Assembly (NCBI RefSeq): GCF_003334405.1
Contig: NZ_QOWM01000070.1
Source of the DNA: Escherichia coli
GTDB lineage: Bacteria; Pseudomonadota; Gammaproteobacteria; Enterobacterales; Enterobacteriaceae
Strand: one strand, 5' to 3'
Length of the DNA stretch: 284 nucleotides
A program made the translations under genes and the position numbers. The notes beneath the pieces are model-generated. The model was not told the origin of the DNA. It saw nothing but the letters and a program-made list of their open reading frames with translations, and made no database searches. Numbering within the stretch: position 1 is the first letter of the stretch; the number at the start of each line of letters is the position of its first letter. Shown here piece after piece: positions 1 to 207 of the stretch.

Positions 1-75
1 GGTCGTTAGCTCAGTTGGTAGAGCAGTTGACTTTTAATCAATTGGTCGCAGGTTCGAATCCTGCACGACCCACCA
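1..75 (+). tRNA. tRNA-Lys (anticodon UUU), 5'-partial: first G of the gene lies outside the window
   Basis: Seen in sequence: 1-75 is identical to 209-283 and matches the E. coli-type tRNA-Lys(UUU) sequence I recognise (GGGTCGTTAGCTCAGTTGGTAGAGCAGTTGACTTTTAATCAATTGGTCGCAGGTTCGAATCCTGCACGACCCACCA). Anticodon loop CUUUUAA at 31-37 with anticodon TTT at 33-35; T-loop TTCGAAT at 53-59 flanked by stem gcagg (48-52) / cctgc (60-64); acceptor 3' strand acgaccc (65-71), discriminator A (72), encoded CCA (73-75). The paralog (lysT/W/Y/Z/Q/V) cannot be assigned because the copies are identical. Confidence 0.96.
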
Positions 76-82
76 ATTTAAA
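76..82 (+). promoter_or_regulatory. AU-rich 3' trailer (ATTTAAA) immediately after CCA; candidate RNase E cleavage site
   Basis: Seen in sequence: atttaaa at 76-82, and the same a follows the second CCA at 284. Established knowledge: RNase E separates polycistronic tRNA precursors by cutting AU-rich single-stranded sequence a few nt downstream of CCA. The assignment to this site is inference. Confidence 0.45.
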
Positions 83-113
83 GGTGGTTACTGGTAGAGA
101 ACGTGAAGGATAA

Positions 114-129
114 CGTTGCGTTAGCAACG
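114..129 (+). other. Hairpin: 6-bp stem cgttgc / gcaacg with GUUA loop
   Basis: Seen in sequence: 114-119 cgttgc is the exact reverse complement of 124-129 gcaacg, with loop gtta at 120-123. An overlapping alternative is taacg (111-115) / cgtta (119-123). Not followed by a T-run, so not an intrinsic terminator. Confidence 0.5.
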
Positions 130-140
130 GCCCGAAGGGC
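130..140 (+). other. Short GC hairpin gccc-gaa-gggc
   Basis: Seen in sequence: gccc (130-133) pairs with gggc (137-140) around loop gaa (134-136). It abuts the previous hairpin and is not followed by a T-run. Confidence 0.4.
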
Positions 141-156
141 GAGACGAAGTCGAGTC

Positions 157-174
157 ATCCTGCACGACCCACCA
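157..174. repeat. Exact 18-nt copy of the tRNA-Lys 3' end (atcctgcacgacccacca) inside the spacer
   Basis: Seen in sequence: 157-174 is identical to 58-75 and 266-283, so the 18-mer occurs three times in direct orientation. The flanking bases differ (c at 156 versus a at 57), which bounds the repeat. Confidence 0.92.
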
Positions 175-207
175 TCCTGAATGATTAAGGCAGCATAATC
201 CCGCAAG

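Follow-up and report, generated by a model that had tools for sequence, protein, structure and literature searches.

Some tRNA operons, argX-hisR-leuT-proM, glyW-cysT-leuZ and metT among them, reportedly depend on RNase E, which is said to cut single-stranded A/U-rich segments at motifs of the RN↓WUU type. Final trimming of the tRNA 3' end is carried out by RNase T. For the RNase E-dependent tRNA operons, the usual RNase E cut is placed a few nucleotides past the CCA (Clarke et al. 2014). The lysT operon of E. coli K-12, which comprises seven tRNA genes, was investigated by Agrawal, Mohanty and Kushner (NAR 2014, PMC4176162) in rph-1, rne-1, rnpA49 and rne-1 rnpA49 strains. RNase P was absolutely required for separation of the tRNAs and worked in the 3' to 5' direction along the operon. 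In the rne-1 strain alone the large precursors were "barely visible", and RNase E was assigned a "very minor" or "very minimal role" when RNase P was present; since the rne-1 allele is leaky, this wording could understate the part of RNase E. Long spacers, including that between lysZ and lysQ, were cut by RNase E only when RNase P was inactive. Two of the probes (10 and 11) lie inside the lysZ-lysQ spacer, and both detected the full-length transcript. The RNase P sites mapped were those of valU, valX, valY, lysV as well as lysW; the lysQ site is not among these five. In the model of these authors (Fig. 7), RNase II and PNPase are proposed to remove the long lys trailers, after which RNase T acts.

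The other system closest to the present locus is the RtT family (Rfam RF00391), with RttR (rttR, b4425) of the tyrT-tyrV region. The facts on RttR used here come from the K-12 annotation, Rfam hits and secondary citations. Secondary sources citing Bösl and Kersten (1991) describe RtT RNA as being set free from the tyrT transcript and as having a link to amino-acid limitation. Secondary sources also place RtT-family RNAs beside Asn and Lys tRNA genes in Pasteurellaceae. In the literature searched for RttR, RtT or small RNAs of the lys spacers, no primary functional study was found.

The window analysed here is a 284-nt stretch of E. coli DNA exactly identical to positions 781370-781653 of E. 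coli K-12 MG1655 (NC_000913.3). Its content is lysZ and lysQ, the final gene pair of the lysT operon, separated by a 132-nt spacer, with 1 further base after lysQ. Both ARAGORN and Rfam recognise lysZ and lysQ as identical tRNA-Lys(UUU) genes, in agreement with the K-12 annotation. On the plus strand, lysZ occupies positions 1-75, cut at its 5' end so that the first G is missing, with the CCA at 73-75 (Rfam tRNA score 71.1 bits); lysQ extends from 208 to 283 on the same strand (79.2 bits). The spacer, 76-207, has an A+U content of 49% and consists of two parts, an RtT-like module of 99 nt (76-174) and a lysQ leader of 33 nt (175-207). The tRNA parts of the window were matched in all of the 5426 complete E. 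coli genomes, and this particular spacer, with at least 80% of its length, in 2451 of them. Among complete E. coli genomes the spacer 76-207 had from 1 to 13 matches per genome, so the number of tRNA-Lys/RtT modules differs between strains.

Taken as a whole, the window is probably best explained as a junction of the lysT operon with a composite spacer, at which RNase P separates the two tRNAs, the lysZ trailer is shortened to CCA+3/+4 and the spacer is mostly degraded. Published work shows that the operon is transcribed whole, beginning at the lysT promoter (TSS 780512) and ending at the terminator that follows lysQ. Cleavage by RNase P at 207/208 would then leave lysZ with a 132-nt trailer. 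This trailer would be shortened to CCA+3/+4, where 3' ends are mapped (positions 78 and 79), either by RNase II and PNPase, as in the published proposal, or by a cut in AUUU↓AAA by RNase E, the enzyme named in the preliminary description of this DNA. RNase T would finish the lysZ 3' end, and the spacer would most likely be degraded rather than kept.

With its first base directly behind the lysZ CCA, the module adjoins a tRNA in a tRNA operon. Its assignment as a short variant of RF00391 is based on Rfam hits, an 18-nt repeat, an indel and the fold. Over window positions 7-174 the RtT model scored 60.0 bits, with the 5' half of the model aligned to the lysZ T-arm and an insertion of 43 nt. The spacer alone scored 43.4 bits (E = 8.8e-8, model positions 47-130), which is 1.6 bits under the gathering threshold of 45 bits. 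The spacer element appears to be a 5'-shortened relative that lacks the 46 model positions found at the 5' end of the tyrT type. The K-12 lysT operon has five RtT hits, one after each tRNA-Lys. Elsewhere in K-12, RtT occurs once after lysV and four times at tyrT-tyrV, where the hits are strong (133-137 bits); the hit after lysV (L003 1030-1185) is weak.

The module is closed by a pseudo tRNA 3' end at 157-174, made up of the T-stem 3' strand, the acceptor 3' strand, the discriminator and CCA. This stretch is the second copy of a direct repeat whose first copy is the last 18 nt of the tRNA-Lys (ATCCTGCACGACCCACCA, 58-75), and the two agree at 18 of 18 positions, CCA included. The repeat family counts three copies, with 100% identity.

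The structured core, delimited by MFE folds and pair counts, lies at 102-166. The MFE fold is compact and has four helices. Stem 1 joins 102-111 to 157-166, which belongs to the pseudo tRNA 3' strand, and leaves an A106/G162 mismatch. Inside it lie three small hairpins, A (114-119/124-129) with the loop GUUA, and B (130-133/137-140) and C (143-145/149-151), each with the loop GAA. Together with the ACC that comes after it, stem 1 loosely resembles a minihelix. The fold thus has the RtT consensus structure, namely an outer stem formed with the pseudo tRNA 3' strand and inner hairpins. Compared with shuffled sequences, the fold gave z = -3.2 for 80-174 and z = -3.6 for the core 100-174, and in the same comparison 76-102 and 175-207 were unstructured. 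In 23 distinct Lys- or Arg-linked elements of Enterobacterales, 94.8% of the cells were paired, against at most 47% in slid controls, the structure having been derived from one of these elements. Five base pairs were changed on both sides in this set, most clearly in hairpin C and stem 1, and the 5' strand of stem 1 varies along with the tRNA type.

Several features of the same segment can be recorded beside the fold. Hairpins B (130-140) and C (143-151) close on C-GAA-G triloops (GCCCGAAGGGC and GACGAAGUC), and their paralogues carry GCGAAGC. The latter is an unusually stable DNA mini-hairpin motif, which could be of consequence should the element fold as single-stranded DNA. The pentamer GGUGG at 83-87, just past the AU stretch that follows the lysZ CCA, can pair with CCACC at 70-74 or at 169-173. 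When paired with the real lysZ CCACC (70-74), it places AAUUUAAA in a hairpin loop; when paired with the CCACC of the pseudo 3' end (169-173), it closes the 80-174 fold. GGUGG is kept in the lysT-valT paralogue, and the lysW-valZ and lysY-lysZ spacers have another 5' hairpin instead.

Two candidates were rejected. The first was that 76-111 represents a 5' half of tRNA-Lys that has decayed; the two have TGGTAGAG alone in common (shuffle p ~0.04), and the other three spacers gave nothing. A 25-aa Arg-rich ORF (MKDNVALATARRARRSRVILHDPPS, GTG start) runs through the G+C-rich core at 103-180 of the plus strand and recalls the 'protamine-like' tpr ORF in rttR. It reads the shared core in a frame other than that of tpr, so that its many Arg residues seem to follow simply from the CGN-rich sequence, and the idea of a conserved Tpr-like peptide was dropped.

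Citrobacter werkmanii and a Pseudocitrobacter MAG have an orthologous Lys-Lys spacer (L010 6416-6524 and L117 4967-5075, minus strand, compared with window 58-207) that consists of a 32-33-nt leader only (TCCTGAATGATTAAG...CCCGCAAG), which directly follows the true CCA. In the alignment, these two genera have a clean gap of 99 nt, an empty site whose limits are set by the 18-nt repeat. Thus, 76-174 is a unit of gain or loss and 175-207 is a conserved leader; the latter, 33 nt long and unstructured, equals the entire inter-tRNA spacer of the module-less relatives. The comparison indicates that the module is dispensable for the downstream tRNA in Citrobacter werkmanii and the Pseudocitrobacter MAG. 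Inspection of flanking sequence by eye suggested that it is seemingly missing from the lysY-lysZ-type spacer of both species too.

A single pattern scan of species-representative genomes (loci L004-L123) found the core CCCGWAGGGCGAR...GAGTNATCC 3' of Lys, Tyr, Arg, Pro, Gln, Ser, Glu and Asp tRNA genes in Gammaproteobacteria. Examples are L012 and L013 for Arg-ACG, L023 and L080 for Tyr, L038 and L062 for Gln, L040 and L119 for Pro, L042 and L077 for Ser, L068 for Glu and L102 for Asp. Every tRNA-linked copy has, after ATCC, 14-18 nt that repeat the 3' end of the tRNA immediately upstream. The outer stem has a 5' strand that matches the tRNA type, being CGTGAAGGAT for Lys, GGGGAAGGAT for Tyr and CAGGGAGGAT for Arg. 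Tandem arrays of the core were present at tyrT, in Photorhabdus and in Pantoea. Three MAGs each contain many copies of the RtT core that lie away from any tRNA gene and have a tail beginning ATCCAG (L052-L057 in a Rhodanobacteraceae MAG, L103-L104 in a Thiohalobacter MAG and L106-L113 in the Gammaproteobacteria MAG JAKDMP01). These tRNA-free copies look like a dispersed repeat family with an RtT core.

Such a distribution bears on whether the module matters mainly as DNA, that is, as a repeat gained and lost at tRNA 3' ends through recombination between the duplicated 18-nt tails or some other targeting, and co-transcribed only to be discarded. This reading is less likely than not. Presence and absence of 99 nt are bounded exactly at the direct repeat, and the core follows at least nine tRNA types in Gammaproteobacteria, always with a copy of the local tRNA tail. 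The tandem arrays, the tRNA-free copies of some MAGs and the restriction of at least 80% of this spacer to 2451 of the 5426 E. coli genomes point in the same direction. The compensatory changes, seen in stem 1 as well as in hairpins A and C, weigh against it, as they point to selection on a folded single strand, unlike what is expected of a passive scar; selection on the fold could nevertheless act on single-stranded DNA. A role at the DNA level is compatible with RNase P separation and subsequent loss of the spacer RNA, and the two are not exclusive.

The preliminary description attributed the mature 5' end of lysQ at 208 to RNase P, and this attribution agrees with the published rnpA dependence of the operon (PMC4176162). 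The substrate is a canonical tRNA-Lys (208-283) with a 3' CCA and a 33-nt unstructured 5' leader. By the general rule for this enzyme, and with the tRNA start as given by ARAGORN and Rfam, the cut would presumably fall exactly at 207/208.

The A/U-rich stretch that had been described right after the CCA is there: AUUUAAA (ATTTAAA in the DNA) occupies 76-82, directly 3' of the CCA at 73-75. All 7 of its 7 positions are A or U, with a shuffle probability of 0.006 at that fixed position; a run of at least 7 A/U anywhere in the spacer appears in 36% of shuffles. In the fetched loci, the first 7 nt of tRNA-Lys trailers have a mean of 77% A/U, so A/U richness is general there. The partition-function fold of the whole precursor, which mispairs repeated tRNA segments and was used solely for the accessibility of 75-82, left 75-82 unpaired with p = 1.0. 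The only RN↓WUU motif of the spacer is AAUUU at 75-79, unpaired with a probability of 1.0. A candidate RNase E site that is single-stranded, A/U-rich and of the RN↓WUU type is therefore found at 75-79.

Mapped 3' ends coincide with this stretch. The Term-seq data of Adams et al. 2021 (PMC7815308) have ends at 781447 and 781448 of the plus strand, that is, at window positions 78 and 79 or CCA+3 and CCA+4. Elsewhere in the lysT operon, the same data place ends at CCA+3 and +5 of lysT and at the mature CCA of lysQ. For valT and valZ, the 3' end is exactly one nucleotide short of the tRNA that follows, which is where an RNase P product should end. The ends at 78 and 79 are compatible both with cleavage by RNase E and with exonucleases stopping near the acceptor stem, and so do not identify the enzyme. 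The supplementary RNase E site tables of Clarke et al. 2014 that were covered have no entry at this locus.

The preliminary description went further and supposed that RNase E regularly cuts in AUUUAAA (76-82) and, together with RNase P at 208, releases a free spacer RNA of 125-130 nt. This is rather unlikely, even though the length is correct arithmetic for cuts at 76-82 and 207/208. The sole RN↓WUU motif, predicted to be fully unpaired, the Term-seq ends at 78 and 79 and the RNase E cutting of lysZ-lysQ (species II) when RNase P is inactive (PMC4176162) all speak for the site itself. As the normal separating route it fits poorly with the strain comparison in PMC4176162: the barely visible precursors in rne-1 mean that RNase E is dispensable when RNase P is present, and no spacer-sized species was reported with probes 10 and 11. 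The Term-seq tables list no end at 207, and an unstructured tail at 175-207 would be trimmed. The candidate site, good by sequence and accessibility, is thus made a backup or auxiliary route by the published genetics. The comparison of rne and rnpA temperature-sensitive strains, once proposed as a check, is already contained in that study, with RNase P required and RNase E in a very minor role.

A persistent spacer RNA of 125-130 nt is accordingly unlikely. In the Term-seq tables (PMC7815308), there is no 3' end at 174, at 207 or elsewhere in the spacer body. The missing end at 174 is weak evidence, because reads ending there match the lysT-valT module identically over more than 50 nt, so that multi-mapper filtering may have removed them. 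Any piece that survived is predicted to be about 95 nt long (80-174) and to end at the pseudo-CCA rather than to measure 125-130 nt, since the unstructured 33-nt tail 175-207 would be trimmed. RttR extends in the K-12 annotation from CCA+8, after UCACUUU, to the pseudo-CCA, and by analogy the limits of any stable piece here would be about 80 and 174.

Excision of this piece (about 80-174) as a stable functional sRNA like RttR, acting for example in the stringent response or as a decoy or sponge, is improbable. The module belongs to the same family as RttR, its fold lies well below that of shuffles (z = -3.2 to -3.6) and its hairpins carry compensatory changes. Secondary sources describe release of RtT RNA during tRNA processing and its link to amino-acid limitation, and 3'ETS-leuZ demonstrates that a tRNA spacer may have a function (Lalaouna et al. 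2015, as cited in PMC8166272). Against these points stand the absence of a listed 3' end at 174 (PMC7815308), with the reservation that repeat-derived reads may be unmappable, and the fact that no corresponding Northern species was reported (PMC4176162). The module is missing from the orthologous spacer of Citrobacter werkmanii and the Pseudocitrobacter MAG and so is dispensable there, according to a 2021 review there is no report of a stable ITS, and the small Arg-rich ORF is out of frame with tpr.

A wider proposal, to which a comparably low probability is given, can be formulated from the spread of the core. RtT-type modules might be a widespread structured class tied to tRNA 3' ends (at least nine tRNA families in Gammaproteobacteria), whose locally copied tail and pairing 5' strand resemble a truncated acceptor/T-arm minihelix. 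Such modules would either spread by an as yet undescribed mechanism aimed at the T-loop and 3' end of tRNAs, or influence, in cis or trans, the metabolism of tRNA 3' ends, where they could for instance be decoys that occupy exonucleases, the CCA-adding enzyme or RNase P. Under this proposal the lysZ-lysQ copy would yield an RNA of about 95 nt.

Transcription of the whole operon from one promoter is supported by published data. A consensus scan of the spacer returned 0 promoter-like sites and, on the plus strand, 0 terminator-like sites. This promoter scan has low power: applied to the K-12 locus, it did not report the real lysT promoter (TTGCGC, 16 nt, TAATAT; TSS 780512), and the absence of a spacer promoter therefore rests on published Cappable-seq instead. 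In those data (Ettwiller et al. 2016), the lysT promoter TSS was detected, and plus-strand starts were found at the lysT promoter and in the lysT-valT spacer, then none until the nadA region. There was no plus-strand TSS from 779968 to 781225 of U00096.2 (780745 to 782002 of U00096.3), a range that includes the spacer and, within it, positions 180-207, where a start would have spoken against a polycistronic transcript. No -35/-10 pair at a spacing of 16-18 nt with a mapped 5'-PPP start occurs in the spacer. An intrinsic terminator, in the sense of a G+C-rich hairpin and a U-tract on the plus strand, is likewise absent from it: no U runs follow the module hairpins, and the one terminator-like site, at 129-114, is on the minus strand. 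Northern analysis (PMC4176162) revealed a species of more than 1100 nt that hybridised to the 5' leader probe and to the terminator probe, so that the lysT cluster is one transcript, and read-through to the terminator after lysQ was also seen. The earlier claim of polycistronic transcription with no internal promoter or terminator is borne out by these results.

That lysQ has its own promoter in the spacer, which would then be partly untranscribed or the 5' leader of a separate transcript, is very improbable: the four transcripts that EcoCyc gave for the cluster at that time (as stated in PMC4176162), the -10-like CATAAT at 194-199 and the insensitivity of the scanner favour it, but CATAAT is a lone hexamer with no acceptable -35 at 16-18 nt upstream, Cappable-seq has no TSS from 780745 to 782002 (U00096.3), and the full-length transcript is seen by both end probes and by spacer probes 10 and 11.

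Other ends and repeats in the operon were noted as well. The lysT-valT spacer (L001 1134-1245; NC_000913.3 780633-780744) has five Cappable-seq 'TSSs' with no promoter-like context. The strongest call, 780633 (score 24.8), equals lysT CCA+4 and adjoins Term-seq 3' ends at 780632 and 780634; it looks like an endonucleolytic cut, yet was enriched as a 5'-triphosphate end. A weak call at 780729 corresponds to the last A of the pseudo-CCA in the same spacer. The lysZ-lysQ spacer has no Cappable-seq calls equivalent to these. Downstream of lysQ, the terminator ATGTAAAAAAGCGCCCTAAAGGCGCTTTTTTGC is followed by a further RtT-like module that ends in a pseudo tRNA-Lys tail (L001 2154-2330), after which comes a second identical copy of ATGTAAAAAAGCGCCCTAAAGGCGCTTTTTTGC.

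The operon structure, the enzymes and the mutant strains once proposed for study were already known from PMC4176162, and the repeat belongs to a curated Rfam family. Of the earlier interpretation, polycistronic transcription and RNase P cleavage hold, while RNase E as the main route and a lasting 125-130-nt RNA do not; the composite, RtT-like nature of the spacer had been missed. The long spacers of the lysT operon are better read as an RtT-like module plus a short leader than as anonymous spacers. On that reading, a fragment that survived would instead be expected to measure about 95 nt and to have its end at the pseudo-CCA.

Compared with the RNase E-dependent operons argX-hisR-leuT-proM, glyW-cysT-leuZ and metT, the locus likewise has an unpaired A/U-rich segment a few nucleotides past the CCA. 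Unlike them, the lysT operon is little affected by inactivation of RNase E alone (PMC4176162). With 3'ETS-leuZ (Lalaouna et al. 2015, as cited in PMC8166272), the spacer shares the property of being a by-product of a tRNA operon that could persist as RNA. According to that citation, 3'ETS-leuZ is a 53-nt, terminator-containing, Hfq-bound sponge, whereas the lysZ-lysQ spacer is internal and has no terminator, U-tail or known partners. Among the RNase P-dependent operons (valV-valW, valU and lysT; PMC4176162), the window is part of the lysT operon itself, and no difference exists. For lysT, that study described a single transcript, separation by RNase P and exonucleolytic trimming of the trailers; the RtT-like nature of the long spacers was not discussed. 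In relation to RttR, an annotated 171-nt RNA, no stable product of the lysZ-lysQ module has been reported. Compared with the tyrT copies, the module is a short variant that covers model positions 47-130 only and scores 43-60 bits against 133-137, and its tail copies tRNA-Lys, whereas the tyrT/RttR tail copies tRNA-Tyr. Both lie directly 3' of a tRNA within a tRNA operon, share the core ...CGUUGC-loop-GCAACGGCCCGAAGGGCGAG...GAGUNAUCC and end in a copy of the neighbouring tRNA 3' end with its CCA, the annotated 3' end of RttR being the pseudo-CCA. The likeness to the RttR family extends to the repetition of the module after each tRNA-Lys of the lysT operon.
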